Shown here: one piece after another, positions 10,843 to 44,959 of the stretch
Layout of the letters: the number at the start of each line of letters is the position of its first letter
Numbering within the stretch: position 1 is the stretch's first letter
NCBI GenBank assembly: GCA_943350635.1
Contig: CALRAI010000001.1
Coordinates: forward strand, 4,051 to 68,050
Origin: Candidatus Uhrbacteria bacterium
GTDB taxonomy: Bacteria > Patescibacteriota > Patescibacteriia > UBA9934
Length of the DNA stretch: 64,000 bases
Direction: 5' to 3'
Position numbers and translations under genes: made by a program
The notes under the pieces: generated by a model
What the model was told of the DNA's origin: nothing
Databases searched by the model: none
The model's input: only the letters and a program-made list of their open reading frames with translations

Positions 10843-11134
10843 ACAAAATACGTGAAGAATAAACGCAAAAGCGATTGAGAGATATGACCCAGATTGCTCT
10901 GGATGAAATCTCCCAACCGCTTAATGCAGTCAGTTCTCACATCGCTTGTGGCTCTCAGCAGATTTCCCTGATTGCCTACCCTCTTGGAGGGAGTGATGTG
11001 GGTGTTCGTCTTTACGACGGACGCACCTCTTTGCTCTTACTTCTTCACTATAACTGAAAAATGGGGTTTGGTCAAAGCATCCCAGTAAGCTAGAGTGATG
11101 TTTCGCTAATTTTATTCAGAGACTTTGTACTGGA

Positions 11135-13758: not shown

Positions 13759-13767
13759 AAAATATTG

Positions 13768-14088: not shown

Positions 14089-14992
14089 TAGCGGACTGTA
14101 GGAATGCGACGGCCTGCACGATGACGAAAATAAGCACCGGATTAATATCGACGAATAAACTTATAAACCAAGATATCACGAAAGTGAGGAGGAGGGATTT
14201 TATGATAGTTTGCATCGTCCAGCCCCCGCTGTGCTCTACTTTTGGCTTCTCCCTCTGATCGAGCAAGAATTCCAGATGCTTCAGTATTTCCGAACTGTTT
14301 CTGAATTCAAATTGGGAAATTCCGCAAAACTCTTGAGAACCCTGCTCAAAGAGCAGATCGTCAAAATTCTTTTTTACAAAATCAGCCTTTTCTTCTCGTT
14401 CACTATCTGAAAGATCTTCAGTTTTCTTGAACCAAATATTCTTTCCGTATTCGCTTTCCACGATTTGTAAGTCTGAGTCTGTGGCGTCCTTCACTTTATC
14501 CTCTATTCTATTTAAACCCATCTTTATCCTTTCGACCGTCTGCCTTAAATACTTTCTATAATCCTCTCGCGAGAGAGAATCCGAATGAAGAGAAAGGATG
14601 AAAAAGATCTCAGCATAAGACACGGCTAGATTTAACTTTTGCCATTCGATCTCCTTATTCAATCGCTCGAGAAGTTCTTTGCGATGGTACTCGGAGGGTG
14701 CCTCCAAGATGGACTCTAGCACTACGCCGTCTTTCACTTCTTCCTTTAGGGGCGGCTCGATGGATTTGTATTTTAAGCGAACGAAGACCTCAATCGGGTT
14801 TGTGTTTATTTTGTATTCGTAAATCTCGTTTATATAAAAACAGTCGTCATTTATGCTCCTGTGAGAATCGAATTCTTTCCTTTCTGGATAAAAGGTTAGG
14901 GTCAATGAGCTCCAATCATCATCAATTGAAATAGTCCTGTCTTCATCCATGACTTCAATGTTTGGAATGCTCATATTTATTTTGCAGTGCAA
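14066..14992 (-). CDS. hypothetical protein with C-terminal membrane anchor
   Basis: Charged coiled-coil-rich soluble region with a double TM at the C-terminus. Overlaps the flanking genes. Confidence 0.45.
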   Translation of the reverse strand: MHCKINMSIPNIEVMDEDRTISIDDDWSSLTLTFYPERKEFDSHRSINDDCFYINEIYEYKINTNPIEVFVRLKYKSIEPPLKEEVKDGVVLESILEAPSEYHRKELLERLNKEIEWQKLNLAVSYAEIFFILSLHSDSLSREDYRKYLRQTVERIKMGLNRIEDKVKDATDSDLQIVESEYGKNIWFKKTEDLSDSEREEKADFVKKNFDDLLFEQGSQEFCGISQFEFRNSSEILKHLEFLLDQREKPKVEHSGGWTMQTIIKSLLLTFVISWFISLFVDINPVLIFVIVQAVAFLQSAIGSYISK

Positions 14993-15873
14993 TGCTCGCT
15001 TAAGTAGTCATTGTACTTTTCAATTTGCTTATTATAAACGTCTATTTTGATCCGAAGAATATTTTCATCAGCTTGGTATAATCTCAAATCACCATTATAT
15101 TTGTCGACGAGTGAATTGTGCATTTCTATTTCAAAATCATCCGTCGAATCATAAATGTCATTTTCTATTTGTTTACGGAAAATATTCAAGTCAGCATCCT
15201 TTTGATCAAGAGACTTTCTTTCCAAAGATAACTCGGTACGCACAGTTTCTATTGGGGCCAGAATATCGGATTGTTCTGCGAAATAATTCGTACAATTATA
15301 TTCTCCTACCGTTACCATATCGTCATTCAGAATAGGATTAGAATTCACGGAATCAGTGCTGATTCCCGATAGACCGCCACCGAAAGATATCAAAGCGATT
15401 GCATAAATAGCGTCGAACCAGAAAATGCGCAATTTGTTCGCGATCCAGATCAAGACGACTAAAGGAAATGCGAGATAGTATAGGGGGCTTCCCCCGTTTT
15501 TGATCGCATTTTTACTAGAGCTATGAATATGCTCCATATCGTGATCACTTGGAAAGGAATGCATTCCCACCGAGATCGCTAGCCAAAGCAAAAAATACCA
15601 AAGGCCGCTTCCTGAAATTGCATTAGCTGCGATGAAGCTCAAGGCTACTGTACCTATTGAGTTCACCAATAACGGTCCGACAGAGATCCAGAAAGTCTGC
15701 TTGTATGTCTTTGGTTCTTCGTGTGAAACGTATCCTGCTGGATTTCCAAATTGAAAATAAACGACTTTATGGACACGAACGCCAAGATGATCGCAGAATA
15801 TTTTATGCGCCCATTCATGAACAACCACACCCGGGAACGTCAATAAAGAAATGAGCCAGCCAGGTATAAACAT
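14977..15873 (-). CDS. membrane zincin-like protein (HExxH in first TM; DUF3267/M50-like) with C-terminal coiled coil
   Basis: VVVHEWAHKIF motif inside the N-terminal hydrophobic region. At least 4 TM helices. Asp/His-rich loop. Coiled-coil tail. Confidence 0.45.
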   Translation of the reverse strand: MFIPGWLISLLTFPGVVVHEWAHKIFCDHLGVRVHKVVYFQFGNPAGYVSHEEPKTYKQTFWISVGPLLVNSIGTVALSFIAANAISGSGLWYFLLWLAISVGMHSFPSDHDMEHIHSSSKNAIKNGGSPLYYLAFPLVVLIWIANKLRIFWFDAIYAIALISFGGGLSGISTDSVNSNPILNDDMVTVGEYNCTNYFAEQSDILAPIETVRTELSLERKSLDQKDADLNIFRKQIENDIYDSTDDFEIEMHNSLVDKYNGDLRLYQADENILRIKIDVYNKQIEKYNDYLSEHCTAK

Positions 15874-15901
15874 ATTTTATTAACCTTACAATAACAGAAA
15901 A

Positions 15902-16042
15902 CACAAAGCCCGCCGCTAGCCGACACCTTGCGGTGTCCATACCCCTTTCGAGATATGACCATACAAAGGAAGCTGAACGACGGGTTCAGTACTTTGTATG
16001 GGTTTACTGCCATACCTCACGGTTGATCCGAGAGGGTTAGGC
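15902..16042. ncRNA. conserved structured element, copy 1 (nested hairpin CCATACAAAG…CTGAACGACGGGTTCAG…CTTTGTATGG)
   Basis: About 140 nt, alignable to 40373-40516 with compensatory changes in the outer stem. Lies in a divergent intergenic region of the island. Strand and function unknown. Confidence 0.4.
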
Positions 16043-16098
16043 AAATTCAATTTTCGAACGTTGTTATTATGGAATTTTTCGGCTAACGTTGTCAAAGA

Positions 16099-17010
16099 GT
16101 GAGGTTTATCGAAAGCTGTTTCGCGAACAAAGAATGCGTATTTATGAAGAATGCAAAAATAGTAATTGATGATTATTCCATTAGCCTATACACATCTCAT
16201 CTTAAGAGAGGAAATTACCGTGTCGGGGAAGTGATGCAGATATTGCTCTTGAGAAGCGACTTTAATGATTTTATATTGCGGTTAGAGTTGAGTGGACTTA
16301 CCCAGGTGGTGCCAAGTTCCGAAAATGAAGACAGTTGGATACATAACGGCATAATTACGCATAAACGTGTCGATGGCTATCTAGCGATAATATTGCAAAC
16401 TGATTTCTTTAAAAATCGTACAGAAATTTGGTTAATGAACTTTACCTCCATCGCAAAAAGAATACTCATAGAGTCCTACGCACGAGGAAGTGCTATGAAA
16501 TTGAGTCACAATGCGGAAGAAAAAATTGTTATTTCAAGCGATGATATTAACTACCCGAATATTTTATATTCATTGATTGAGATAGATGACGGCTTTCGTA
16601 AGATTCTAGATACGAATAAATTTGAGCAGGAACCGGATATGATGCCCATTTTTATAGAGAATGGTCGATTTTTTGAAATCAGCATCAATGCTCAAGTTAC
16701 GAAACCAGAGCTTATAAGTTTTATCGAAAAAAACTGGAGTGAAATAGAAAGAGATGTAAGGGGACGAAATCCTTCAGAAAAGAAAGAGAGAGCATCAAGT
16801 TCTTCAAATTTCTTACGTGATATTAAAATACTTAATAAATATAATGATTTTAAGAATGAAGGTTTTAAAAATCCGGATGTAAAAGTATTTTCCTGGTTAT
16901 TAAAAGAGGATCAGATAGAAATTGAGCCGAATACTGTGCGAAAAATAGTATCGAATCTTAATAAATCAATAAGAATGTTAAATAGCGATTCTTTAAAGGA
17001 TAAAATCTGA
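16099..17010 (+). CDS. hypothetical protein
   Basis: 303-aa ORF with a GTG start (an ATG at 16144 is an alternative). No motif recognised. Confidence 0.45.
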   Translation: MRFIESCFANKECVFMKNAKIVIDDYSISLYTSHLKRGNYRVGEVMQILLLRSDFNDFILRLELSGLTQVVPSSENEDSWIHNGIITHKRVDGYLAIILQTDFFKNRTEIWLMNFTSIAKRILIESYARGSAMKLSHNAEEKIVISSDDINYPNILYSLIEIDDGFRKILDTNKFEQEPDMMPIFIENGRFFEISINAQVTKPELISFIEKNWSEIERDVRGRNPSEKKERASSSSNFLRDIKILNKYNDFKNEGFKNPDVKVFSWLLKEDQIEIEPNTVRKIVSNLNKSIRMLNSDSLKDKI

Positions 17011-17133
17011 TACTCAACATTTTGTGCTAAATAAAATCGGCTATCTTTTCACGATTTCGTGAATTAATCTGGCTGCTTAAATTCGAACGACGTTCTATTT
17101 TTATAAAAGTACTCTCTCAAAGTACTTTTAATT

Positions 17134-17403
17134 TTGTTTATGCGTATGCAAGCAATATCGACAAATGACACGTTTCCTTCCCGCGATTGGGTACTTATCG
17201 CAACCCTCTCCTCCCTCGGCTTCCCGATTGAAGCCGTGGAGCAAGACTCACAGGCTCGGACAATCTTTCACATACAGCGCTCCGACAGCCTGGACGACGT
17301 TATACAGCGATTCTGGAGGCGTGAGCTGCGTGTTGAGCCTCAGGAGTTCAACCAGCACATGAAGCTCGTGAAGGCTCGCATGTATGACGCTAAGATTTTC
17401 TAA
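17134..17403 (+). CDS. hypothetical small protein
   Basis: 89-aa ORF preceded by the palindrome AAAAGTACT-N7-AGTACTTTT at 17096-17121. Confidence 0.35.
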   Translation: MFMRMQAISTNDTFPSRDWVLIATLSSLGFPIEAVEQDSQARTIFHIQRSDSLDDVIQRFWRRELRVEPQEFNQHMKLVKARMYDAKIF

Positions 17404-17427
17404 GACATTCAAAATTAATGCGTATAT

Positions 17428-17979
17428 ATGGCGAGAAAAAGAATGCTTCACGCAAAGATCTGGGACAGCAATCAATTCAACTCATTAAAACCACTACTTC
17501 GTTTACTTTACATAGGTTTGGTCACTATCGCGGATGACTATGGCTGTTTTCGTGCAGAGGGCACGTTTCTCAGGCGAAAGCTGTTACATTCAGACAGGAT
17601 TAGCCCGGCACAAATTGATGCAATGTTGCAGAAAATTAACGAAGTTGGATTGATTGAATATCGTCAAACAGAATTCGGTTCCATCGGCATTCATCCGAAG
17701 TGGGACACGTATCAGAAGCTCCGTAAGGACATTGCTAGGTCTAGCGACTTTCCTGACCTCGACGTATACGCCATGGATCTGCCATGGCTACGTGACGTCA
17801 ACATAAGAGAAGACAAGATAAATAAAGAAAGCTCAGAATCAGGGGAAGAAAAGAGAATTGAAATTAGTGAAAGAGAACTTGCGCCGATCTTCTCCGGAAG
17901 AGAGCAGACAGAGCGGGCTCTGGCTGCATTCAAGAAGAAACAGAAAGAGAAACTGAATCCATTCTCTGATCTTCTATGA
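17428..17979 (+). CDS. hypothetical protein (possible winged-helix DNA-binding/replication-associated)
   Basis: ORF immediately upstream of the xis/int module. The assignment is speculative. Confidence 0.4.
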   Translation: MARKRMLHAKIWDSNQFNSLKPLLRLLYIGLVTIADDYGCFRAEGTFLRRKLLHSDRISPAQIDAMLQKINEVGLIEYRQTEFGSIGIHPKWDTYQKLRKDIARSSDFPDLDVYAMDLPWLRDVNIREDKINKESSESGEEKRIEISERELAPIFSGREQTERALAAFKKKQKEKLNPFSDLL

Positions 17980-29565: not shown

Positions 29566-30477
29566 ATGCGAACATTCTTCCGCATTATTCGGTTCGCGAT
29601 GCAGAGTATGCTACGGAATTTTTGGTTGTCGTTTGTAACAGTTTCCGTGTTTGTCCTTACATTGATCACGGTGAACGCGGTGATTATTTTGAACGTGCTC
29701 GCGAATGCATCGGTGAAAAGTGTGGAAGGTCGCGTGCAAGTAACGGTATATTTCACGTCCGACGCTTCGGTAGATACAGTAAAGAGTACACAAAGCTACT
29801 TGCTCGGATTATCCCAGGTGAAAGACGTTTCGTACGTTACGGCGGAGGACGCGTTGATAGCGTTCAAGGAAACGCACAAAAGCGATCCCGTCATTCTTGG
29901 GGCGTTGGACGAAGTGGATGGGAATCCGCTCGGTCAGGCGCTCAAGATTCGTGCATACAATGCCGCAGACTTTCCGTTTATTTTAGAGGCGTTGGAAACT
30001 CCAGAGTACGCGCCGTTTATTAAGGACAAAAATTACAACAACTACGAATCGGCGCTGAAGGTGTTGGGAAATTTCTCGGAAAAGATCCGTATCGGCTTTT
30101 TGGTACTTGCGTTGTTCTTTGGATTTATTGCCATGCTCATCGTCTTCAATACCATTCGCGTAGCCATTTACGTTCATCGTGAGGAAATTGGTGTGATGAA
30201 GCTTGTGGGTGCCAACGACTGGTTTATTCGCGGGCCATTTTTGTTGGAGTCGATATTTTACGCATTCATCGCCACGGGAATCATGGCAGGAATTATTGCC
30301 ACAACGCTGCGCTTTGCGAATCCGTACATCGTAGCCTTCTTCCAGGGTGTGGACGTAGATTTGGTGGCATACTACTCCACCAACGCGTTGCCAATGTTCG
30401 GTGCTCAATTTGGCATTCTTGCGTTCCTTGGGCTTGCAACTACAGCCTTTGCCATGCGCCGGTACTTGAGAGTGTAA
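29566..30477 (+). CDS. ftsX: cell division permease FtsX
   Basis: 4 TM helices with a large periplasmic loop between TM1 and TM2. Lies 3 nt after ftsE. Confidence 0.85.
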   Translation: MRTFFRIIRFAMQSMLRNFWLSFVTVSVFVLTLITVNAVIILNVLANASVKSVEGRVQVTVYFTSDASVDTVKSTQSYLLGLSQVKDVSYVTAEDALIAFKETHKSDPVILGALDEVDGNPLGQALKIRAYNAADFPFILEALETPEYAPFIKDKNYNNYESALKVLGNFSEKIRIGFLVLALFFGFIAMLIVFNTIRVAIYVHREEIGVMKLVGANDWFIRGPFLLESIFYAFIATGIMAGIIATTLRFANPYIVAFFQGVDVDLVAYYSTNALPMFGAQFGILAFLGLATTAFAMRRYLRV

Positions 30478-30546
30478 AGAGCCTGATGCTTTGAGCGTGT
30501 TGGGCGTTACGAAGATTGATGGGTTCGGGTGTCTCGAATGTGCTCG

Positions 30547-30590
30547 TGTAAGACAATGTAAGACACTGACTTACACAAGATTGTAAGCAC
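30547..30590. promoter_or_regulatory. iteron/operator-like array of TGTAAG(A/C) half-sites
   Basis: TGTAAGACA (x2, 10-bp spacing), inverted CTTACA, then TTGTAAGCA. Immediately upstream of the GC-rich insert. Confidence 0.35.
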
Positions 30591-30668
30591 CCCCTCACTC
30601 CCGCTCAACCCTTCAAAAGAATCAGTTTCTGTGCTACCTTCGTTCCGCCAATATCGGCAGGAGTTCCC

Positions 30669-31289
30669 ATGATTCGCGACATTCAACTCATCGTTCTCGA
30701 CGGTCAACCTGGTGGCGGGAAGGACTTTTTCCTTCAAATGCTGGAGGCGGATCCGTGGTTCATGCGGAACGCCGTCATCGAAACGGAAGCCGCGGCGCTA
30801 CTGTACACCGCCCACAAGGTGCAGCCGGGGGAGTTCGGCACCGTTTCCCAGGACACGATCGACGCGTTTCAGAACGCCATTGCGAGCCTGTGCATGTTCA
30901 AGCGCTCGCTTGCCGTGGACCGTGCAGTGCGCGACGGCAAGAAGCTCGTGGTGTTCAACCGCTTCATACCGAGTGGTGCGGCGTATCTGCAGTGGGGGAT
31001 TGTGGATCTGATGGCAATCACGAATTTGTCCGAGGTCGAGATGAACAGCGGCATCGACCACGTGATCTGCCCTGGCCCGCCGCCGGAGGAGCACTACGTC
31101 ACCAACGAATATCGGTTCGAGACGTATGCAGAAGCGTGCGTGCTCGGTGCTCGGGCTCGTCAGGCGTACATCGACTTGGGCTTCGTACCAGGCACCACAC
31201 TGCACGACATCCCCGGCGGCGACGACTTCGACGCCAAGTGCGCGCTGTTCATGGCCACGATCCGCCAACTCACCGGTGCCGAGCACTAG
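30669..31289 (+). CDS. P-loop protein (nucleotide kinase-like), GC-rich foreign gene
   Basis: LIVLDGQPGGGKDF Walker-A-like motif ending in GKD, as in phage dNMP kinases. About 65% GC versus roughly 50% backbone. Confidence 0.4.
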   Translation: MIRDIQLIVLDGQPGGGKDFFLQMLEADPWFMRNAVIETEAAALLYTAHKVQPGEFGTVSQDTIDAFQNAIASLCMFKRSLAVDRAVRDGKKLVVFNRFIPSGAAYLQWGIVDLMAITNLSEVEMNSGIDHVICPGPPPEEHYVTNEYRFETYAEACVLGARARQAYIDLGFVPGTTLHDIPGGDDFDAKCALFMATIRQLTGAEH

Positions 31290-31333
31290 CCACGATCGGC
31301 AATCAGCTCAGCACAACACCCACGAAAACACGA

Positions 31334-31367
31334 CGCCCTGCCAACTCTTTCGAGCTGACAGGGCGTT
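31334..31367. terminator. GC-rich hairpin terminator (bidirectional)
   Basis: CGCCCTG-N17-CAGGGCG followed by TTT. Lies between convergent genes. Confidence 0.5.
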
Positions 31368-31403
31368 TGCGTGCGTACTGCGGTCACCGTGTCGAACAGT
31401 GAG

Positions 31404-32318
31404 CTACTTCTTGATCTTGGCCATGGCCGTCTCGCACGCGGCGATGAACGGCAGCATGTCCTCCTTCTTGAAGTAGTAGCTGTACTGGGTCGCGAGCTCG
31501 ACCATGCGGTCGACGCTCGACCAGGTCTTCCGAATGCCGACCACGTCTCGGTGGAGCCGTGTGACGACGCCGGGGCACAGGTTGCGGATGCGGGCGATGA
31601 ACGCCTGCTCTTCCGCGCGCCGTGCATCCGCCGCGATCTCCCATTCGTTCTTCGGCGCATTGCTGTGCTTCGGAACGTACTGGATCGTCTCCACCGGCTT
31701 GGGGGCCGGAACGCGCTGGATCATCGGCGGGGCGATCACGATCGGGGCCACGGCCATCGCACGGAGCTGCTCCAGGGACACGCCCTGTCCGGGCTTGCGA
31801 CGGGAGCTCGGGGCATCGATCTTGCGATCGACGACCACGGGCTTCGGAGCGGCGTAGCGTTGCAGCCACGCGAGGCGGTCGGCTTCGTTGGCCTTCCGCA
31901 CGTCCTCGAGCCAACGGAGGTTCTCTTCCACGCGAGCGGCTTCGGCAGCGGCTTCGGCACGCTCGTTCTCCAGACGCATCGCCTCGGCCCTCGCTGCGGC
32001 GGCGCGACGCTGCTCGGCGGCCTTGCGCGCGGCCTCGATGGCCACGGCAGGATCCGGCTTGACCACCACCGTCTTGGCGACGATGACGACGGGCGCGATG
32101 ATGTCGTTGGAGGGGCGGATGCGCCGCTTGGGCTGCGCGACCGGTTCGGGCCGCTTGGCCTCAACCTCGACGGCGATCTGGTCCTCGCGCCGCCAGACGG
32201 TGGGCGTGCGGCCGTTGTAGCCGGTGTCGAGGGTCGAGACGGCGCCGCGGGTGGCGCTGAGGCGGTGGCCGATGAGGTTGAGAAACTGGTCTTCGATGCG
32301 ATTGGCGGAAGCGGTCAT
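31404..32318 (-). CDS. hypothetical Ala/Arg/Glu-rich coiled-coil protein (GC-rich insert)
   Basis: The long minus ORF is the most protein-like of several overlapping GC-rich frames. Start chosen at MTASANRIEDQ. Confidence 0.35.
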   Translation of the reverse strand: MTASANRIEDQFLNLIGHRLSATRGAVSTLDTGYNGRTPTVWRREDQIAVEVEAKRPEPVAQPKRRIRPSNDIIAPVVIVAKTVVVKPDPAVAIEAARKAAEQRRAAAARAEAMRLENERAEAAAEAARVEENLRWLEDVRKANEADRLAWLQRYAAPKPVVVDRKIDAPSSRRKPGQGVSLEQLRAMAVAPIVIAPPMIQRVPAPKPVETIQYVPKHSNAPKNEWEIAADARRAEEQAFIARIRNLCPGVVTRLHRDVVGIRKTWSSVDRMVELATQYSYYFKKEDMLPFIAACETAMAKIKK

Positions 32319-32467
32319 GTGAAGATCTCCGGGGATTGGGGAAGCGAACGGGGGTGGTGAACAAAGAGCAATCAGTAACAAAATATGATAGCACAATTTG
32401 TGCCTTTTGTAAAGGGGAATGTACCGGTAAAATAGCGAATATTAGCGAAAAAAGATGAAGATTTTCC

Positions 32468-33397
32468 CTATTTAAACGTTGTTTCTTGTGCCTGTTCGGT
32501 TGTATGTTCTCGACCCTCTTGCATAAACTCTAAAATCTTCTCACTACGCATCTCCTCTTCGGTTTCGTATATTCCAGATCTGGCAATATCTGCTGCAAGT
32601 ATTGACTCGTCTATTCCGAATTCCACAGGAAACACTGTTTGTGAAAGAATAAAAGCTGCTTGTCCCATGCACCATTCGTCCTTATTCTCCATGGTAAGTA
32701 ATTCCTTGAAGAGCTTGAGCGCATCGCGTCCATCGCCTTGTTCGCGAGACTCCCTTGCTTCCGCGAGAGCATCAGCTCGCTCCTGATCCAAAGACACAAT
32801 AAGCGAGCTTGGTCCAAAGCGTAGTCCACTATCCGAATATGGAAGATCTTCGTGTTCGCGGATTGTTTGGGCAACCTTGATATTTCCGTAGTTGAGATCC
32901 TCAATTGCTAAAAGATCACTTTCTATAGTGGAATCATGAAAGGCTTTGAAATGTGTTACTTCATGTCCGAGTAGCTCGGCGCTCCAGTCTTCTTCGACGT
33001 CGCTATTTAATACAATAAAATTATCAAGACGTTGAGACGGGGTAAGGTCTTGCGGCGAATGATACCCAATAGCATTCGCGTCTCCGCCAATCATTGCAGA
33101 CGTTGGCCCAGCAAAAAAACGATCGTGTTCAATATAGAATCGCAAATCATCTCGCGATCCTTCTATTTCAGCAACCATGAGCTCCGGGTCGTTTACTGCT
33201 CCGTTTCTATCAACCCACCCACCGTCCATGGAGCGTACCATTTCAAGAACAAGAGGCGTTGCACGATCCGCAACGTCCGCTAAATATTCAACGTTTTCTC
33301 GTTGCGCATCTGTGAGTCTACTCGTGCCCGGTGGCAATGCTCCGCAACCCGTTGTGGCCGCAAGACCGGTGACGATGAGCGCTTTTGGAAAGGTCAT
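32468..33397 (-). CDS. putative secreted zinc metalloprotease lipoprotein
   Basis: Lipobox (LAATTGC) and an HExxH motif (LLGHEVTHF). Confidence 0.5.
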   Translation of the reverse strand: MTFPKALIVTGLAATTGCGALPPGTSRLTDAQRENVEYLADVADRATPLVLEMVRSMDGGWVDRNGAVNDPELMVAEIEGSRDDLRFYIEHDRFFAGPTSAMIGGDANAIGYHSPQDLTPSQRLDNFIVLNSDVEEDWSAELLGHEVTHFKAFHDSTIESDLLAIEDLNYGNIKVAQTIREHEDLPYSDSGLRFGPSSLIVSLDQERADALAEARESREQGDGRDALKLFKELLTMENKDEWCMGQAAFILSQTVFPVEFGIDESILAADIARSGIYETEEEMRSEKILEFMQEGREHTTEQAQETTFK

Positions 33398-35620: not shown

Positions 35621-36574
35621 CTATTTAAATGGCTTTTGAAGTTTTGATTGCACAACTTCGCTTATTTTATGGGCATCCCCGTGGCTCAACATGCCAAGAT
35701 ACGAGGATACGGATTCCTCTTTGCTCTCTGTTCCAAGATTATTCATCATTCTGCGTTTGGTGGTCGTACGAAGAACCCGATGATGCGGAAAATGCACCCA
35801 GCCTAGGAAATCAATTCCCGAGGCGATTGTGGCAATGGAGACTTTGTTTGGGTGCAACGCGAGGTGTAACCGTGACTCTAAAAATTCAGCGATCTGCGGC
35901 AGGAGATGTTCTAAATATTCTCTGCCTTCATGCAGGACGACAAAATCGTCGGCGTAGCGGATGTAATGTGCTGCCTTCAAATTGCGCTTTATGAAGTGAT
36001 CAAACACGTTCATGTAGATATTGACCAAAAGTTGGCTCGTAAGGTTACCGAGCGGAAGTCCGACGCCGGGCCTGCCGTCCGTGTGAAAACTCCCGATCAC
36101 TTCCGCGAGGAGCCAAAGAATATCTGTGTCGTTGACATGCCTTTTGATGACGTCGAGGAGAATCGCATGATCGATGTTGGCAAAGAACTTTCGTATGTCG
36201 CATTTCAACACCCAAGCGGTACGGGTGTGGTTTTTGGAAACCTTGGCGGCAAATTCTCGAAGACGATTGATTGCGCGATGCGTACCCCTCCCCTCGCGAC
36301 AGGAGTACGAATCAAAAATGAATTTACGATCGAAGAATGGATATAGGATTCGATAGATTGCGTGATGCAGGAGCCGATCACGGACGGTCGCTTTATGAAT
36401 ATCCCTTGGCTTCGGGTCGTTAATCTTAAAGGCATGGTATCCGCCGTGCCGGTAGGACCTATTGGCGAGGTCGCCGTGCAACGCGACGAGATTATCCATG
36501 AGGCTTGCCGCGAAGAGGGCAACGTCTTCCCGTTTCCTTTTTCCAGACAAAAACTCCTGCCAGGCGGCAAGCAA
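35621..36574 (-). CDS. diversity-generating retroelement reverse transcriptase
   Basis: RT motifs including YADDFVVL, and the DGR-specific LGNLTSQLLVNIY (GxxxSQ in place of group II QGxxxSP). 317 aa. TR/VR pair nearby. Confidence 0.85.
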   Translation of the reverse strand: MLAAWQEFLSGKRKREDVALFAASLMDNLVALHGDLANRSYRHGGYHAFKINDPKPRDIHKATVRDRLLHHAIYRILYPFFDRKFIFDSYSCREGRGTHRAINRLREFAAKVSKNHTRTAWVLKCDIRKFFANIDHAILLDVIKRHVNDTDILWLLAEVIGSFHTDGRPGVGLPLGNLTSQLLVNIYMNVFDHFIKRNLKAAHYIRYADDFVVLHEGREYLEHLLPQIAEFLESRLHLALHPNKVSIATIASGIDFLGWVHFPHHRVLRTTTKRRMMNNLGTESKEESVSSYLGMLSHGDAHKISEVVQSKLQKPFK

Positions 36575-36708: not shown

Positions 36709-37032
36709 TTGGTTTGGATGAACATTGCGCCGCATATTGCAAAGGGTGCGCGTTTTACGATTGGCGCCAGGATTGAAAGTAAGTTTCTCGACCTGTTGGA
36801 GTTGAGTTACGCCGCCTATTTTACCGACAAAGAAAAGAAGGTTGCAAAGATTGCCGAGTGTGTCTTCGTGCTCGATACGCTCAAGTTTCTCATCACCACA
36901 GCATGGGAAGGAAGACTGATAGCCAATAAGCAGTGCGAGGACGTTGCCAAAAAGCTGGACGAGATCGGCAAGATGTTCGGGGGCTGGAAGAAGAATCTCG
37001 AAAACCCTGAACGAAAAAACCGCGCCATGTAA
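36709..37032 (+). CDS. Avd-like four-helix-bundle protein (accessory variability determinant / 23S rRNA IVS protein family)
   Basis: …KFLDLLELSYAAY…LKFLITTAWEGRLI…EDVAKKLDEIGKMFGGW resembles the C-terminal two-thirds of TIGR02436-type proteins. TTG start in the ORF track (an ATG lies at 36718). Opposite strand to RT, TR and target. Confidence 0.45.
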   Translation: MVWMNIAPHIAKGARFTIGARIESKFLDLLELSYAAYFTDKEKKVAKIAECVFVLDTLKFLITTAWEGRLIANKQCEDVAKKLDEIGKMFGGWKKNLENPERKNRAM

Positions 37033-37482: not shown

Positions 37483-39693
37483 CTAAGGCCTCAAGGGTTT
37501 CTTGCGAAGACGGAAGACGAACTCATAGCTCGCATCCCACACGTCCGCCGGCTTCGCCCAATCGTCGCGGAGCCACGACCCATCGTCATTGCGTCCCACG
37601 TAGAAGACGCCCGGGCTGCCGCCCGAGTCGGAAATTTGCTTCATGCCAACGTACACATATTCGTTCATTGGTTGATTTGTGTACTGCAAACGGAATTGCG
37701 GACCGACCTCTGGCGGACAAAGCTCGAGACCCAGCTCTTCAGCTCGGGCGTAAATTTGATCTGTCGTTGCACCGCTTGGGAAACCCAAATCTTCTACGCG
37801 AAGGCGGATAAGCTTCGCTTCCTCTGGAGATTTGAGTTTCCACTTTTTCCAATCTGGTTGCTTTGGGTCGGGCTCGCGAAGGGAACGCTTGAAGTCATCG
37901 TGTTCCATCATTGATTTGGCGTATCCGTAAATTTGGAATCCGCTACGTTCAAGAAGATTTTCAAGTTCCTGTTCGTCCTTGCCACCGATCTCAATGCTTT
38001 GACGGCGAATGCGGCTCTCAGGGAATTTGGTGTAAACATGCTCTACGCCTTCCGGTAGCTGATCGAAAATGCCAGGCTCAAGCTTGCCGACGTAGGCTTT
38101 AGTCGATTCGTTGATCTGATCAACCGAACGGGCAATTTGGCTTTCATCGCACTCAAAGACGACAAGCATGTCCTCATCAGGATTACGCTCACGGTGCAGT
38201 TCGACAACACGAGGATCCTTGTCGTAGCCGAAACCCTCGATAGGAGCATTGATTTCGTAGAGGAAAAGAAGGTCTTGTTTTGTGAGCGGCTTACCGGCAA
38301 CGGTCTTTTGTTCGACGAGGGTCAAGAGTCTCATGTCGCCGGCTTTCTTCTCGTAAGCCGTGCCATCTGGAAATTCTTTCATCTTTGCTCCGACAACTGG
38401 CGCGATATGCGGATCGAGGTTCTGATCGGGCGCGATACCACGAACCTCGGCAATCTTATCGCCTTCCATACGAATAGCGGCACGGGGAATGCTGCTTGCG
38501 CCGGATTCATCTTGCGAATAGTAAACATAAAAGTCGCCACGGGAGAGCTGGGACTTTGCCACCTCTTCTCCGGCGGTACACCAACCGGTCTTGTGGCGCT
38601 CGATGGATTGGACGAGCAGGGTTGGCTCGGAGCCTTGGGCATACTTCACCCATTGTCCCGTAGTGTTATGCAAGAGCGTTTCGCTGGTCGGGATGAGCTT
38701 GGCAAATTCAAGGGCATAGAGTCTGGCAAAATCCTTGGCATCCAAAGCCGATTGAACTTCCGGTTCGAGATTTCGTTCGTCGACAGGCGTTGCAATTTCA
38801 AACGTTGACGGATCAAACGGAGCCATGTCAAGTTCCGCGATGATTCGTTCGCGGTCAACGGGCGCGGCTGGGTTTTGTTTCTTGGCTTCGGCAATCTTTT
38901 GTCCGATAACAAGCTGGCGTTCCTTGTTGTGCTTTTTTTCTGCTCGTTCCAGCTCCTGCCGTGACGCTGCAAGCTGTTCCTTGTAAATACGATCATGTTC
39001 AACGTGATCGCGAACCTTTCCAAGAACTGCCTGGTCCAATTCGGGGAACGGATTCATGGTCTCTTCGTCCCTGGAGGGAAAGGTTTTGGTGTCCTTATCA
39101 AAACTCGAGAGTCCGGTGACGCTTCTCATTGCCCAGTACCTGAACCAGTCTGGGTAGGCGGCTCCGGCATCATCGGTTGCAAGATAGTCGATCCACTTGT
39201 CCAGTGATCGCTTTTGGTCTTCGATCTTGGCGACGATTTCCTCGGCCATCTGCTTTTGTTCGTTCGGAAGTTCCTGAAGCTCTTCCCCGATGTCTGATCC
39301 TTTGGCGATAGCCTGTACCGCGCGCGTAATCTGATCGTGGACATCATCGGGAATGTCCGTGTCGCCATGTCCTAGGGCACGCGCCTGTTTTTGTTGGTGC
39401 CCCAAATATTCCTCGGTGGCGACGTCAGGTTTCACGATCAGGGCTTCGTGCATGAAGCGCTTCATCATGGAGAGGTTGCGTGCCTTGCGGTCAAAGCTCT
39501 CGTGGCCCTTGATCGGCGGCGGATTGAGCACCACGTCCAGGCGGTCTAGATATGCCTGTATACGTTCCGCTGGGATATTCCGAACACGCTCGCGTGTTCG
39601 AGATTCTTTGCGCGCAACAGCCCTCTCCGCTTCCGGCGATTTCTCAAGCTGGTATTTCTGTCGAAGAAATTCGGGGTTTGATCCTTTTTCCAT
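37483..39693 (-). CDS. DGR target protein with C-terminal C-type lectin/FGE-sulfatase-like variable domain
   Basis: 737-aa soluble protein with no signal peptide. C-terminus fits the CLec VR pattern (G-x-x-x-GSW…W…FVFRL) and contains the VR. Start taken at MEKGSN. Confidence 0.75.
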   Translation of the reverse strand: MEKGSNPEFLRQKYQLEKSPEAERAVARKESRTRERVRNIPAERIQAYLDRLDVVLNPPPIKGHESFDRKARNLSMMKRFMHEALIVKPDVATEEYLGHQQKQARALGHGDTDIPDDVHDQITRAVQAIAKGSDIGEELQELPNEQKQMAEEIVAKIEDQKRSLDKWIDYLATDDAGAAYPDWFRYWAMRSVTGLSSFDKDTKTFPSRDEETMNPFPELDQAVLGKVRDHVEHDRIYKEQLAASRQELERAEKKHNKERQLVIGQKIAEAKKQNPAAPVDRERIIAELDMAPFDPSTFEIATPVDERNLEPEVQSALDAKDFARLYALEFAKLIPTSETLLHNTTGQWVKYAQGSEPTLLVQSIERHKTGWCTAGEEVAKSQLSRGDFYVYYSQDESGASSIPRAAIRMEGDKIAEVRGIAPDQNLDPHIAPVVGAKMKEFPDGTAYEKKAGDMRLLTLVEQKTVAGKPLTKQDLLFLYEINAPIEGFGYDKDPRVVELHRERNPDEDMLVVFECDESQIARSVDQINESTKAYVGKLEPGIFDQLPEGVEHVYTKFPESRIRRQSIEIGGKDEQELENLLERSGFQIYGYAKSMMEHDDFKRSLREPDPKQPDWKKWKLKSPEEAKLIRLRVEDLGFPSGATTDQIYARAEELGLELCPPEVGPQFRLQYTNQPMNEYVYVGMKQISDSGGSPGVFYVGRNDDGSWLRDDWAKPADVWDASYEFVFRLRKKPLRP
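37507..37640 (-). repeat. DGR variable repeat (VR) at the 3' end of the target gene
   Basis: Encodes …GRNDDGSWLRDDWAKPADVWDASYEFVFRLRK. Differs from TR only at TR-adenine positions. Confidence 0.85.
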
Positions 39694-39833
39694 ATGCGGG
39701 AATGGTAGCAAAAACAGCCCAGAATTGGTAGCGCACGTCCACACCTATTTAGGTGGCCTTGAGTTACTACATCTTTTTTGCCCCATTCAAAACGCCACCC
39801 CAGATGGATGGCGTTTTATCTTGTAATTTCTCC

Positions 39834-40313
39834 CTACTTCGTCACGAGCGTGCAGTCCTTCACGAGCACGTTCCCAAGAAGTCCGTTCACGCGTCCTTGC
39901 ATGGTCACCTTGGTGCCCTCTGCCAATGCGCTTGCTTCCGCGATCGCATCGTCGTCGAGCATGCATTGCACGGAGCCGATAATGTCGCCGGTCTTAAGCG
40001 AGATGTATGGCTTGTCGAGAATGTCTTTGCCGATGTTGTCGACTGTACCGCTCACTTCCACGAGCTTACCCTTGTAGGTATTATCGGCGGAAATTTCGTT
40101 CGCCTTATAGTCGGAATAAAGCTTCGTCGACGTGACGACGATCGCTTCTTCCGCCGGCGCGGTATTGGCCTGATTCGATCCTGACGAACTGGTACCCGAC
40201 GAACCACTACCACCGCCAGATGAGGCGATGACAATGACGACGATAATGGCGAGGAGCCAGAACCACCACTTTTTATAAATCGGACGCTTCACCTTGGTTG
40301 GATTGTCACTCAT
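39834..40313 (-). CDS. membrane-anchored OB-fold (tRNA_anti-like/BOF) protein
   Basis: KKWWFWLLAIIVVIVI TM helix, Gly/Ser linker, and C-terminal …YKGKLVEVSGTVDNI… fold. Start at MSDNPTK. Confidence 0.45.
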   Translation of the reverse strand: MSDNPTKVKRPIYKKWWFWLLAIIVVIVIASSGGGSGSSGTSSSGSNQANTAPAEEAIVVTSTKLYSDYKANEISADNTYKGKLVEVSGTVDNIGKDILDKPYISLKTGDIIGSVQCMLDDDAIAEASALAEGTKVTMQGRVNGLLGNVLVKDCTLVTK

Positions 40314-40372
40314 ACGAATATGAATGTTAATAATAAGCGAACTTTCGAGTGATGCTGGGTGAGGCTTTATAG

Positions 40373-40516
40373 CACAAAGCCCGCCGCCAGCATTGTGACT
40401 TTCATCACCGCACCCCTTTCGGAGTACGACCAACCAAGGCTTTGCTGAACGACGGGTTCAGTGCCTTGGTTGGGTTTAGCACCATGCCATGGTCGATGTC
40501 CGATCATGGTTTAGGC
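40373..40516. ncRNA. conserved structured element, copy 2
   Basis: Aligns with 15902-16042. Inner hairpin CTGAACGACGGGTTCAG is identical. Outer stem CCAACCAAGGC/GCCTTGGTTGG covaries with CCATACAAAG/CTTTGTATGG in copy 1. Confidence 0.4.
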
Positions 40517-40606
40517 GACTCTAAGTTGTACGCACATAGTAGCTTATTGCAGAAAACTACTCAAATTGAGTTGCCTACAGTTTGCTTTAGGGATTTTTGA
40601 GGAGAT

Positions 40607-41460: not shown

Positions 41461-42825
41461 TTGGGTGTAGCAGGGCGACTATCGGGTGTAGCGGCGTGGG
41501 TGATGCAATATCCCCATAACTCTTCACCAACACCTATGCCAAAAGACATAGAACAAACAGCAAAGATCGCCGTTCAATACGTCCCGATAGATTCACTCAA
41601 AAACACAAAATACAACCCGAGAAAACATGATGCGGCCGCAGCGGAAAAGCTGAAAGACAGCATCCGTCGTTACGGTCTCGTCGACCCTATCCTTGTAAAC
41701 AGCGCGCCGAAACGCAAAGGCGTCATCATCAACAAACATTTTCGTTGGAAGGTCGCCAAGGAACTTGGTATTGAGCAAGTACCCGTCGTGTTCCTCAACA
41801 TTCCAAATCCTGAACGCGAGAAGGAACTTAACCTTCGCCTCAATCGGAACACTGGCGAATGGGACTGGAATTTGCTGAAGGACTTTGATCTCGACCTCCT
41901 TCTTGATGTCGGGTTCGATGACGTCGATCTGAGCCATGTGTGGGATGACTCACTCGAAACCGAGGACGATGACTTCAATATCAAAAAAAAACTGGCCAAG
42001 ATTAAGAAGCCAACGACAAAACCTGGCGACATATTTCAGCTCGGCGTGCATCGGCTTATTTACAGCGACTCCACGGATGCAAATGTCGTGAAGAAGCTTG
42101 TAGGGAAAGTTGGTATCGACATGATTTATTCTGACCCTCCGTACAACATCGCCCTCGACTACTCCAAGGGCGTGAGTACTTCCGGTAAGTACGGCGGAAA
42201 AACGAACGATAAAAAAACCACCGTCGATTACCGCGCATTCCTCAGGTCGGCAATGGAGAATGGCCTCGCCGTTGCCAAGTCGGACGCACACGTCTTCTTT
42301 TGGTGCGACGAAAACTACATTGGCGTCGTGCAAAGTCTTTACCAAGAGGTTGGTGTCGCGAACAAGCGCGTGTGTTTGTGGGTGAAGAATAACTTCAACA
42401 TGACGCCGCAAGTGGCTTTCAACAAAGCCTATGAGCCCTGTGTCTACGGCACACGCGGTAAACCGTACCTTGCGCCGAAGATTCAGAACTTGAACGAGCT
42501 GATGAATAAAGAGATCGGCAACGGCAATCGCGTAGCCGATGACATCTTGGATCTTATGAGTATTTGGTTGGCGAAGCGACTGCCCGCGCAAGAATACGAA
42601 CATCCGACGGAAAAGCCGCCCACCCTGCACGAGAAAGCTCTCCGACGCTGCACGAAACCGGGCGACGCAGTTCTCGACCTGTTCGGCGGCTCGGGTTCGA
42701 CGCTCATCGCTTGCGAGCAGTTAAAACGACGCGCGTTCCTGGTTGAGATTGAACCAATATTCTGTGACTTAATCATTCGTCGATATGAAGCCCTCACCAA
42801 AACAAAAGCCAAGCGCATCAATTAA
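41461..42825 (+). CDS. ParB-like nuclease domain fused to DNA N4/N6 methyltransferase
   Basis: N-terminal ParB-N (VQYVPIDSLKNTKYNPRKHD…GLVDPILVN). MTase motifs IYSDPPYNI and EHPTEKP with a C-terminal SAM-binding region. Start may be MPKDIEQ (41536). Confidence 0.7.
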   Translation: MGVAGRLSGVAAWVMQYPHNSSPTPMPKDIEQTAKIAVQYVPIDSLKNTKYNPRKHDAAAAEKLKDSIRRYGLVDPILVNSAPKRKGVIINKHFRWKVAKELGIEQVPVVFLNIPNPEREKELNLRLNRNTGEWDWNLLKDFDLDLLLDVGFDDVDLSHVWDDSLETEDDDFNIKKKLAKIKKPTTKPGDIFQLGVHRLIYSDSTDANVVKKLVGKVGIDMIYSDPPYNIALDYSKGVSTSGKYGGKTNDKKTTVDYRAFLRSAMENGLAVAKSDAHVFFWCDENYIGVVQSLYQEVGVANKRVCLWVKNNFNMTPQVAFNKAYEPCVYGTRGKPYLAPKIQNLNELMNKEIGNGNRVADDILDLMSIWLAKRLPAQEYEHPTEKPPTLHEKALRRCTKPGDAVLDLFGGSGSTLIACEQLKRRAFLVEIEPIFCDLIIRRYEALTKTKAKRIN

Positions 42826-43393
42826 GTTAGGCGACATTTTTCTCCTCGGTGAGCATCGCCTCATGTGCGGGGACGCGCGCGACGCGGATGCAGTCGTGAA
42901 GTTCGTCGGGAAGGAGCGTGTCGCTGCCATTGTTTCCGACCCTCCATACGGTGTGGCCTATGTTGAGAGCAAAGCGGGGTTCAAGCAGAAGCTCGGTAAA
43001 GAGAAAATTATCGTCAACGATCACGAACAATCCGAGGACGAATATCGCATCTTCACCAAAGACTGGATGCTCGCCATTCGGCCATTGCTCGCGCGACACA
43101 ATAGCCTCTATGTGTTTAACGCCGACAAGATGATCTTCGCCCTACGTGAAGGCATGCGTGACGCAGGCTATGTGTTTACTCAACTCCTCATTTGGGCAAA
43201 GACGCACGCAGTTGTCGGTCGCATGGATTATCTGCCACAGCACGAACTTATTGCCTACGGCTGGTACGGACGGCACCAATTCCAGAAGGCAAAGGACAAA
43301 TCGATCTTGGTTTATCCTAAGCCTTCATCGAGCAAGATGCATCCGACCATGAAGGGAGGCAAGCTGATCGTTGAAAAGACCAAGAAAACCTAA
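42785..43393 (+). CDS. DNA N4/N6 methyltransferase (short paralogue)
   Basis: LGDIFLLGEHRLMCGD (the same N-terminal motif as the upstream MTase domain), SDPPYGVAY, and HPTMKGGK. Confidence 0.65.
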   Translation: MKPSPKQKPSASIKLGDIFLLGEHRLMCGDARDADAVVKFVGKERVAAIVSDPPYGVAYVESKAGFKQKLGKEKIIVNDHEQSEDEYRIFTKDWMLAIRPLLARHNSLYVFNADKMIFALREGMRDAGYVFTQLLIWAKTHAVVGRMDYLPQHELIAYGWYGRHQFQKAKDKSILVYPKPSSSKMHPTMKGGKLIVEKTKKT

Positions 43394-43452: not shown

Positions 43453-43493
43453 TTGGTCACCCCCTGTCCCGGTCTGTAGGAACAGGTCGTGAT

Positions 43494-43566
43494 GGTTCCG
43501 GGACATGGATTCGAACCATGGTTCACGGCTTCAAAGGCCGCTGTCCTGCCGTTAGACGATCCCGGA
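43494..43566 (-). tRNA. tRNA-Gln (anticodon TTG)
   Basis: Hand-folded: acceptor TCCGGGA/TCCCGGA, anticodon stem GCGGC/GCCGT with loop CTTTGAA, T-arm CATGG-TTCGAAT-CCATG, CCA encoded. Confidence 0.8.
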
Positions 43567-43645: not shown

Positions 43646-44440
43646 ATGAGTAAAGTGTCTGTGATTCAAGGGGATCAGCGACGAAAGGCGGTGTACGAAT
43701 CGCTGTATGGTTTGGGTATGGAGTTTGTGGACCGAATCAAAGCGACGAAATCCATACTTGTGGTGCCGAATATTTCATCGGCGGATAGTGCTTTTGCCAT
43801 ACACGCCGACGCACTTCGGGGAACAATCGATGCCATTCGTGTGCATTCTCGGGCTCCTATCAGTATCGGTGCTGCGGGAATGTATGGAACGAAAGCGGTG
43901 TTTCAACGCTTGGGATACGATCGACTGCTCCGTGAATACGATCATCTCCGATGTGTTGATTTTTACGACGACTCGCTCATCGAAAGTTTTATCGACGACG
44001 GAGCAATGATGATTCGTCGTCCAGCAACGGCGATGTCGAGAAGTTTCGTGATCTCTATAGCGCCGATTATTCCAAGTCGCACAGAATACATTTCTTTTTG
44101 CATCGAAAACTGGATCCGTAACTCATGGATCGTGCCGCCACGCTCGAGTGCCACGGGAATGGTGTGGAATCATGAGCCGTGGCTGGAAGGAAAGCGGGAT
44201 CGAGTTATCGGAGAGTTGTACCATCAGAAGCCATGCGACCTCGCGATTATCGACGGGATCGAGACACGAAGCATTGTTCTTGCGGGATTCGATCCTGTGG
44301 CGGTGGATACGGTTGGCGCTTCGCTTACTGGAATTGATGTTGCATCGGATTCTTACCTTTCTCTGCTTTCCGAACGGGGACACGGAGAATGCGCGTTATC
44401 CAAGATTGATGTTCCCTTGGGGATTGTTTCGCCTCGATAA
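43646..44440 (+). CDS. hypothetical protein (possibly DUF362-like)
   Basis: 264-aa ORF. The family assignment is tentative. Confidence 0.4.
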   Translation: MSKVSVIQGDQRRKAVYESLYGLGMEFVDRIKATKSILVVPNISSADSAFAIHADALRGTIDAIRVHSRAPISIGAAGMYGTKAVFQRLGYDRLLREYDHLRCVDFYDDSLIESFIDDGAMMIRRPATAMSRSFVISIAPIIPSRTEYISFCIENWIRNSWIVPPRSSATGMVWNHEPWLEGKRDRVIGELYHQKPCDLAIIDGIETRSIVLAGFDPVAVDTVGASLTGIDVASDSYLSLLSERGHGECALSKIDVPLGIVSPR

Positions 44441-44470: not shown

Positions 44471-44959
44471 ATGCCTACCTGTATTTTTCCTGGTCGATTT
44501 CAGCCGTTTCACGAAGGTCATATGCTCGTGGTGCAGGGGATGATGAAAATTCACGGAAATGCCGTTATTGCCATTTGCGATGGAAAGTCGGAGCACGGAG
44601 CAGATACTCCGTTTACGGTGGCACAGCGTCATGAAATGATCAGTGCCGCGCTTTTGGCCGCAGATATTACCGAAGCAACGATTGTGGACGTGATCGACAA
44701 GCCGTCGGACGAGCAATGGGTGGACGCAGTTATCGATGCTGCAGGGAGTCCTCGTGAGCCTTTAGTGTGGAGTGGTCGTGAGGAGATTCGCGCAATGTTT
44801 GAGGAAAAAAAGATTGAAACAAAAAAGATTGTTCCGGTTCCCGGTATCGACGGTGCCGCAATCCGATCAGCGATCGTCGCCGGAAAAGTAGATGAATGGC
44901 GAAAGAAAATTCCTGCGGGGGCATTAGATGTGGTGATGGAGATTACCCGCCTTTCTTAA
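44471..44959 (+). CDS. nicotinamide-nucleotide adenylyltransferase (archaeal NadM-type cytidylyltransferase)
   Basis: CIFPGRFQPFHEGH (HxGH nucleotidyltransferase motif). 162 aa. Confidence 0.7.
   Translation: MPTCIFPGRFQPFHEGHMLVVQGMMKIHGNAVIAICDGKSEHGADTPFTVAQRHEMISAALLAADITEATIVDVIDKPSDEQWVDAVIDAAGSPREPLVWSGREEIRAMFEEKKIETKKIVPVPGIDGAAIRSAIVAGKVDEWRKKIPAGALDVVMEITRLS

Follow-up and report, generated by a model that had tools for sequence, protein, structure and literature searches.

A GC-rich P-loop kinase-like gene and its orphan neighbour are residents of the ftsE-ftsX locus in Uhrbacteria-like Patescibacteria

P-loop kinases of the Pfam family AAA_28, including the C-terminal ribosylnicotinamide kinase (RNK) domain of NadR, operators built from phased short repeats, and tRNA-linked genomic islands are the described systems closest to a two-gene segment that we analyzed in a 64,000-nucleotide stretch (the window) of contig CALRAI010000001.1 from a Candidatus Uhrbacteria bacterium. 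Phased short-repeat operators include the MetJ metbox arrays, the ParR/parC iterons, and the omega heptads. The segment follows ftsX and contains a repeat array, a P-loop gene (gene A), and a convergent gene encoding an orphan coiled-coil protein (gene B). Gene A is related to the NadR RNK domain and AAA_28 at the profile level, with the same size and order of secondary-structure elements, and a gene of the nicotinamide-nucleotide adenylyltransferase (NMNAT) type, the other enzymatic activity of NadR, is its conserved neighbour. It differs from them in standing alone, without a fused NMNAT or helix-turn-helix (HTH) domain, in having GKD instead of GK[S/T] and Asn instead of the Walker B Asp, and in its fast evolution, extreme guanine-plus-cytosine (GC) content at third codon positions (GC3), and score below the Pfam gathering threshold; its kinase role is a prediction from sequence and model. 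The array shares with the phased-repeat operators its short pseudo-palindromic units, direct and inverted, about one helical turn apart and upstream of a gene. The interval from ftsX to the NMNAT-like gene resembles tRNA-linked islands in having a tRNA-Gln gene, lineage-specific cargo, and inversions, but A and B are conserved residents of it rather than cargo, and there is no adjacent integrase. With moderate confidence, we favour the explanation that A and B are a resident, fast-evolving, GC-rich pair, in which A would be a kinase with its own operator array and B an orphan coiled-coil protein, and on which a GC-favouring force would act.

The evidence for residence comes from synteny. Just 8 homologues of A (48-57% identical) and 5 of B were found among 5.8 billion proteins, and scans of genomes and metagenomes with the A profile yielded just 1 and 2 further loci. 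Homologues of A lie directly 3′ of ftsE-ftsX in the relatives that we refer to as L001/L002, L005, L013/L016, L018, L024, and L025, as well as on the contig of P0003. Every homologue with recoverable upstream context adjoins ftsE-ftsX, with L015 and L019 retaining a partial 3′ end of ftsX, and the distant relatives recovered by an exhaustive profile search are placed alike (P0015 in L024 and P0017 in L025). One relative (L011) bears the name Candidatus Uhrbacteria. The homologues of B are found in the interval running from ftsX via tRNA-Gln to the DUF362-NMNAT gene pair in L001, L005, L013, L020, and L021. The order of genes after ftsX varies: it is array, A, and then B, adjacent and inverted, in the window and L013; A, tRNA-Gln, two genes, and B in L001; a BNR-like gene, A, an HExxH gene, a PemK toxin-antitoxin pair, tRNA-Gln, and B in L005; and tRNA-Gln followed by B in L021, from which A is absent. 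The cargo of the interval across lineages comprises the PemK pair, the BNR protein, ParB-methylases, and a reverse transcriptase (RT) and Avd resembling those of diversity-generating retroelements (DGRs).

Homologues with equally high GC occupy the same locus in at least 8 other lineages, the very condition that the initial annotation had set for refuting acquisition. A recent insertion is thereby refuted, and the proposal that the segment is a horizontally acquired module is not upheld. Uhrbacteria-like Patescibacteria have this region as a resident, clade-specific component of their ftsE-ftsX...tRNA-Gln...DUF362-NMNAT locus. Of the features by which genomic islands are usually recognized, it has an atypical composition, while the locus is not vacant in relatives and mobility genes or border repeats were not found. 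There is no integrase, transposase, or border direct repeat within 30.4-32.5 kb, and the tRNA-Gln gene is 11 kb away. No homologue of A or B was detected in a tblastn search of phages and plasmids or in a protein scan of viral contigs. Literature searches combining Uhrbacteria with horizontal gene transfer and GC content, or FtsEX with AAA_28, found no pertinent work. A horizontal component that is older or confined to the clade is still plausible because L025 carries a homologue with normal GC3, the tree of A is discordant with that of FtsX, and the coding sequence (CDS) of A behaves like a cassette.

The compositional anomaly that first drew attention to the segment is real. The window averages ~48-50% GC; in consecutive 500-nt windows from 30501 to 32500 the GC fraction is 0.56, 0.60, 0.68, and 0.60, compared with 0.45-0.50 in the flanks. 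Genes A and B (30.6-32.3 kb) account for the rise, with overall values of 0.605 and 0.68, so that the ~65% originally estimated was a fair figure. At the first, second, and third codon positions (GC1, GC2, and GC3) the values are 0.63, 0.40, and 0.79 for A and 0.69, 0.47, and 0.88 for B, while the GC3 of the neighbouring genes is 0.36-0.59. The GC3 comparison that had been suggested as a check gave z-scores of 3.9 for A and 5.1 for B against the remaining 62 open reading frames (ORFs) of the window (mean 0.486, standard deviation 0.077, maximum 0.66). The excess GC of the two genes sits at synonymous sites; the GC2 of A (0.40-0.44) equals that of its neighbours. The long overlapping ORFs of the segment are by-products of its high GC, as had been supposed.

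The excess is shared by the relatives, with GC3 values of 0.66-0.90 for A across nine loci and 0.85-0.92 for B across six, against 0.36-0.68 for neighbouring genes. At conserved four-fold-degenerate codons, third positions agree between lineages approximately at chance, in A and B as in the housekeeping neighbours. Because synonymous sites are saturated, an inherited foreign composition should have decayed, and the GC excess is consequently a maintained property rather than a relic. Atypical GC is routinely taken as a sign of recent horizontal transfer, and at this locus the shortcut misleads. In L025 the position of A is occupied, 10 bp after ftsX, by a canonical GKT/DR AAA_28 gene with a GC3 of 0.48; this ordinary value implies that the GC-rich state arose within the clade. 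The GC-rich state of A came about either by displacement with a GC-rich homologue or by change in place, and has persisted since.

Some gene-specific force must act to hold the GC3 of A and B at 0.8-0.9 in genomes of ~50% GC. A locus-specific GC-favouring force could be selection, or it could be GC-biased gene conversion tied to frequent exchange of alleles. A process confined to the two CDSs, such as GC-biased conversion with very frequent replacement of alleles between the conserved leader and terminator or a targeted AT-to-GC mutation, is rather doubtful in our estimation. If it did operate, A and B would form a gene-scale, self-maintaining island of composition that is not foreign DNA and that outlasts synonymous saturation while its proteins diversify. 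GC3-rich genes also occur sporadically elsewhere in the group, whose member L025 has ~50% GC. In L025, two paralogous small secreted proteins of 155 and 135 aa are encoded at 6534-7575 (-) with GC3 values of 0.87 and 0.83 and are unrelated to B, and an asparaginase gene of L001 has a GC3 of 0.74. The L025 genes hyp112, hyp155, and hyp135 were tested as relatives of B and found to be unrelated.

The protein product of A starts with MIRDIQLIVLDGQPGGGKD, and its P-loop GQPGGGKD occupies residues 12-19 of 206, as the initial annotation had read it. Its relatives P0014, P0016, and P0017 exceed the gathering threshold of AAA_28 (PF13521), and a profile of the A family retrieved 215 proteins, including canonical AAA_28 members (down to E 1e-13) and CYTH-AAA_28 fusions. 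The AlphaFold2 model (mean predicted local distance difference test, pLDDT, 84.7) has the P-loop fold of nucleoside and nucleotide kinases. No match was found in PHROGs, NCBIfam, or PADLOC, and a sequence search against solved structures returned nothing significant. The earlier description as dNMP-kinase-like holds in so far as A is kinase-like. The dNMP part was not borne out, as A matched no thymidylate or dNMP kinase sequence family (NCBIfam, for example TIGR00041), and its structural scores against thymidylate kinase and deoxynucleoside kinase are lower than against the NadR RNK domain.

Gene A departs from the canonical Walker A GxxxxGK[S/T] and the Walker B Asp, having GQPGGGKD and NR in place of DR. 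The two departures go together: GK[D/N] with NR is found in 8/8 sequences of the GC-rich clade and GK[T/S] with DR in 6/6 canonical ones, a perfect correlation among the 14. Such a correlated exchange suggests relocation of a carboxylate rather than its loss: the metal ligand may have left Walker B (D to N) for Walker A (T/S to D). This would define a sub-family of AAA_28 / NadR-RNK-like kinases with a correlated swap of Walker A and Walker B ligands. In our reading, the ancestral gene 3′ of ftsX was an AAA_28 P-loop kinase gene, which either gave rise to A or was displaced by it, and A probably remains an ATP-dependent small-molecule kinase, acting most likely on a nucleoside or nucleotide. 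The constant presence of a NadM-type NMNAT gene in the neighbourhood, by which both NadR-type activities would be available as separate genes, makes nicotinamide riboside a specific candidate. That neighbour has NMNAT as its top NCBIfam match (E 5e-24, under the curated cut-off) and is syntenic in L001, L005, L021, and L025. The locus links an AAA_28 gene to ftsEX and NMNAT in Patescibacteria, whose salvage of nicotinamide adenine dinucleotide (NAD) is poorly charted.

Between ftsX and A lies an array of short repeats. Its unit TGTAAGACA is present as direct copies at 30547 and 30557 (the pattern TGTAAGAC is matched at the same positions on the plus strand), followed at 30567-30575 by an inverted copy (on the minus strand, TGTAAGTCA) and at 30582 (+) by a degenerate one, TGTAAGCA. 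Four half-sites at 10-bp phasing had been reported before; there are indeed four copies, but the third is inverted and the fourth is degenerate and follows after 15 bp, the start spacings being 10, 10, and 15. The units have the form TGT-N3-ACA, and copies 2 and 3 make up a 19-bp imperfect palindrome. Three copies with at most one mismatch fall within 29 bp at spacings of 10 and 10 bp, that is, in phase with the helix. Across the window, the motif is matched 12 times at this stringency versus 10.5 expected, so that it is locally clustered without being enriched overall.

An orthologous array is present at the same position in L013/L016/L017, where TGTATGACA occurs four times in direct orientation, phased at 10 bp, once inverted as TGTCATACA, and once in degenerate form. 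This common architecture at an orthologous locus excludes chance. The unit of L013/L016/L017 departs from that of the window at position 5, and does so in all full copies, the inverted one included. On its 3′ side the array of these relatives is followed by a block, CCCCTC(A/G)CTCCCGC(T/C)CAACCCTT(C/T)AAAAGAATCAG, and then by the leader of A. The window, L016, and L012, the last of which is cut off by the contig end, share CTCAACCCTTCAAAAGAATCAG. Ahead of the start of A, most loci have (C)GGCAGGAG, of which L001, L015, L018, and L024 carry variants. No array was found in the other clade of A (L001, L005, L015, L018, L019, and L024), in which the intergenic region is short.

The array is most likely a cooperative binding site for a dimeric DNA-binding protein that would control A. 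The regulator site postulated by the initial annotation is plausible to this extent, in that the array is conserved and its full copies co-vary; its binder was not identified, and it is confined to one of the two A clades. Among the operators of NAD metabolism, the NadR box is TGTTTA-N6-TAAACA and the NiaR motif TGT-N4/5-ACA (PMC2330245). The array units share the TGT...ACA symmetry, and the 19-bp TGTAAG-N7-CTTACA resembles the layout of the 18-bp NadR box. The array differs in its position ~80-120 bp before the start codon and in its restriction to one sub-clade, and no cognate regulator was found for it; we treat the likeness as a possible lead. No member of the NiaR, NrtR, or NadR-HTH families was found among the window ORFs. 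As for B as the possible binder, its terminal domains had no significant Pfam match and its full-length model no fold match in the PDB.

The alternative that carries most weight is that the array, instead of being a protein operator, forms the tip of a structured hairpin in RNA or DNA, be it a 3′ element of ftsX, the leader of A, or a remnant resembling a miniature inverted-repeat transposable element (MITE), with the direct copies produced by slippage. Complementary octamers enclose the array in both lineages (GTTGGGCG at 30499-30506 and CGCTCAAC at 30602-30609 in the window; GTTGGGCG...CGCCCAAC in L016), with a change from G-U to G-C. The lineages differ by an A/T to T/A change that is compensatory within the hairpin at the tip, the number of direct copies (2 vs 4) is as slippage would give, and a second, nested palindromic insertion is present nearby in L016. 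The intergenic element folds with z-scores of -6.2 in L016 and -3.2 on the minus strand of the window. However, shuffled sequence folds as well as the plus strand of the window, on which ftsX and A are encoded (z = -0.9 and -1.4). Moreover, identical units phased at exactly 10 bp typify the binding of a protein to one face of the DNA helix, the palindrome centre of 1 nt cannot make an RNA loop, an Rfam scan of 30300-32600 returned no match, and the two independent sequences are too few for a statistical test of covariation. On balance, we consider the hairpin unlikely, though a serious competitor of the operator.

Several minor observations concern the array and its surroundings. A candidate minus-strand promoter over the fourth repeat (TTGAGC-17-TACAAT in the window) was rejected, as its equivalent in L016 failed the scan. 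The MITE-like nested palindrome inserted between the array and ftsX (GTCATCCCCGCGAAGGCGGGGATCC ... GGATCCCCGCCTTCGCGGGGATGAC) is at 1670-1745 of L016, is also present in L013/L014, and is absent from the window. Viral contigs gave 36 matches to the array motif, many of them redundant, and these were dropped as probably unrelated. Two of the contigs have arrays of direct and inverted repeats similar to TGTATGACA, which in L029 (8100-8200) precede the gene for a terminase large subunit (gpA) and in L041 (4590-4620) a weak, sub-threshold match to a small subunit (Terminase_2, E 2.4e-4). These arrays may be packaging sites, and their likeness to the array of the window is probably coincidental. 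The 11-mer TAACGGCAGGA is common to the leader of A in L005 (5975-5995) and L019 and the D-arm of tRNA-Gln, with an overall similarity of ~17/29 in L005; the leader of the window (30645-30663, ATATCGGCAGGAG) has only CGGCAGGA in common with the D-arm. This similarity may be due to chance or to a remnant of a tRNA-associated rearrangement.

The coding sequences of A and B diverge much faster than their surroundings. L005, L021, and L024 are closely related, with FtsX 92-95% and FtsE 97-99% identical. Between L005 and L024, FtsX has 93% amino-acid identity and A only 36%; at the DNA level, the 57 bp before the start of A are 89% and the 80 bp after its stop 82% identical, whereas the CDS has no BLAST similarity. 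Segment-wise alignments gave identities of 60-71% for the CDS of A and 80-93% for its flanks. Likewise, B is ~50% identical between L005 and L021 over 244 residues, compared with 95% for FtsX. Between the window and its nearest relative, L020, identity is 98% in the promoter and leader of B and 88-91% in the flanking CDSs, and 61 codons of B differ non-synonymously and 30 synonymously. We infer from these alignments either repeated within-clade replacement of alleles between conserved flanks or the persistence of long-lived divergent alleles.

The same pattern would be expected of a conflict module for toxicity and immunity or anti-phage defence under diversifying selection. Hypervariable CDSs between conserved flanks, deep alleles kept in close relatives, the 61 non-synonymous against 30 synonymous codon differences in B, the absence of A from L021, and a neighbourhood that gathers a PemK toxin-antitoxin pair, methylases, and DGR-like parts all point in this direction. 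Nevertheless, neither PADLOC and PHROGs nor the Pfam family Zeta_toxin gave a match, A has no antitoxin partner, A and B are separated or not found together in some lineages, and the ancestor of A was an ordinary operon member 10 bp after ftsX. We regard a conflict module as improbable, and the toxin role once suggested for the pair found no support.

The resident pair can also be weighed against a recent insertion, in which a module from a GC-rich donor would have inserted itself, in this particular genome, 3′ of ftsX and ahead of the HExxH lipoprotein gene. Such an event would account for the sharp step in composition and the GC3 values 4-5 standard deviations above the window genes. It would also suit a variable hotspot beside tRNA-Gln, where a toxin-antitoxin pair, DGR-like parts, and methylases have accumulated in different lineages. 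In addition, the canonical syntenic homologue of L025 with its normal GC3 indicates that a GC-rich replacement took place at some point. We nonetheless judge a recent event very unlikely: lineages with saturated synonymous sites have the same genes, equally rich in GC3, at this locus, all homologues of A and B with recoverable upstream context adjoin ftsX or share the locus, and neither mobility genes and flanking repeats within 30.4-32.5 kb nor homologues in phage, plasmid, and viral collections were found.

Equally hard to sustain is the idea that the high GC3 reflects codon optimization of highly expressed genes or plain amino-acid composition. The near-consensus promoter of B, its richness in Ala, Arg, and Pro, and the sporadic GC3-rich genes of the relatives (the two secreted paralogues of L025 and the asparaginase gene of L001) speak for it. 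However, the window genes for ribosomal protein L21 and for HU reach GC3 values of only 0.51 and 0.50, so that high expression is not the cause, and the GC2 of A is normal, so that amino-acid composition is not the cause for A, its excess being synonymous. The GC3 of the canonical L025 orthologue is ordinary as well. We give this idea very little credence.

Gene B encodes 304 residues, among them 50 Ala, 34 Arg, 29 Val, and 25 Glu, and is the convergent Ala/Arg/Glu-rich coiled-coil gene that had been predicted. In its model (pLDDT 62), a short helix at the N-terminus is followed by a disordered stretch that is basic and rich in Pro, a long helix (90-156), and, at the C-terminus, a domain of four helices (225-303), which is the best-conserved portion. 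The reading frame is supported by tblastn (E 9e-19 vs 5e-10 for the antisense frame), by the order GC3 > GC1 > GC2, by a GGAG ribosome-binding site, and by its own promoter and terminator. The ENA and NCBI annotations of the contig (L007-L009) instead call an antisense ORF, 31371-32360(+), and the same miscall in L001 and L005 kept their B homologues out of the protein database. The promoter TTTACA-17-TATCAT is near-consensus and has the palindrome GCACAATTTGTGC (32391-32403) in its spacer; the layout recurs in L013 (TTTACA-17-TATAAT with GCAC...GTGC) and L020. B is predicted to be expressed from its own promoter with a putative palindromic operator.

No family could be assigned to B. It had no match in Pfam, PHROGs, NCBIfam, or PADLOC, its isolated terminal domains gave nothing significant in Pfam, the best hit of a sequence search against solved structures had an E of 1.5, and Foldseek against the PDB found nothing with E < 3. 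An HTH-like reading of SPATVARLHRD in B is a tentative one, made by eye. That B is a coiled-coil partner of FtsEX in the manner of EnvC, PcsB, or CwlO, as its gene near ftsEX and its long predicted coiled coil might suggest, is hardly credible, given that it has no signal peptide, transmembrane segment, or LytM, CHAP, or NlpC/P60 domain and that its orientation and distance from ftsX vary.

Against the favoured explanation of a resident kinase gene with an operator array and an orphan partner, the following points must be set. The evidence comes from few metagenomic lineages, with the 8 homologues of A and 5 of B. The absence of A from L021 makes it dispensable, which is a poor fit with an essential step of NAD salvage. 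The protein of the window itself stays below the Pfam gathering threshold for AAA_28 (21.1 bits, E 4e-4, against a threshold of 27), and its non-canonical Walker motifs could mean that catalysis was lost. The second clade of A has no array, a protein that would bind the array was not identified, the domains of B match nothing, and a long hairpin can be drawn for the same region.

Table 1. Positions of the features discussed, in window coordinates
Feature	Coordinates	Strand	Basis or remark
ftsE	ends 29563		Pfam; just upstream of ftsX
ftsX	29566..30477	+	Pfam FtsX_ECD + FtsX; conserved left anchor of the locus
Conserved intergenic element around the array	30499..30609	+	L016 orthologue
Repeat array	30547..30589	unstranded	repeat and motif scans; orthologous array in L013/L016/L017
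C-rich block and leader of gene A	30590..30668	+	ribosome-binding site GGAG at 30660-30663
Gene A, 206 aa, predicted P-loop kinase (AAA_28 / NadR-RNK fold)	30669..31289	+	Pfam, profile search, model
Terminator hairpin common to convergent A and B	31333..31366	unstranded	folding
Gene B, 304 aa, orphan	31404..32318	-	homologues, GC1/2/3 pattern, ribosome-binding site, promoter, terminator
Promoter and 5′ leader of gene B	32319..32467	-	TTTACA-17-TATCAT (32413-32385)
tRNA-Gln(ttg)	43493..43566	-	landmark of the variable segment
DUF362 gene	43646-44440		precedes the NadM-type NMNAT-like gene
NadM-type NMNAT-like gene	44471..44959	+	Pfam CTP_transf_like; conserved right anchor

The coordinates of the locus are listed in Table 1. 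The hairpin between A and B has a folding energy of -34.8 kcal/mol followed by UUUU on the B strand and of -23.6 kcal/mol on the A strand. With its GC-rich stem, U-tract, and conserved position it has the hallmarks of an intrinsic terminator, in line with the strong terminator first noted, and hairpins of other sequence are found at the same position in L013, L016, L001, L018, and L005. Of the flanking genes named originally, ftsX was confirmed by Pfam; the metalloprotease on the other side of the pair is a putative one, read from a lipoprotein-like N-terminus and an HExxH motif, with no match in Pfam, NCBIfam, or PADLOC.

In the window, ~11 kb of cargo separates B from tRNA-Gln. This cargo contains DGR-like parts, namely an RT ORF at 35621-36574 (-) (RVT_1, E 1.5e-25) and a bAvd-like ORF at 36709-37032 (+) (E 1.4e-13), near which an ORF of 753 aa at 37483-39744 (-) matched no family. 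Elsewhere in the window, a low-GC block (0.31-0.47) spans 8500-17500, and one window ORF matches Phage_integrase and could belong to an integrated element in this block. The LOOT RNA family (RF03000, gathering score 46.4) is matched twice, at 15922-16043 (-) with 91.5 bits inside the low-GC block and at 40395-40517 (-) with 77.7 bits in the cargo between B and tRNA-Gln. The cargo adjoining tRNA-Gln further includes a tRNA_anti-like protein with an oligonucleotide/oligosaccharide-binding (OB) fold at 39834-40433 (-), a fusion of ParB_N with an N6/N4 DNA methylase at 41461-42825 (+), and a second methylase ORF at 42785-43393 (+).

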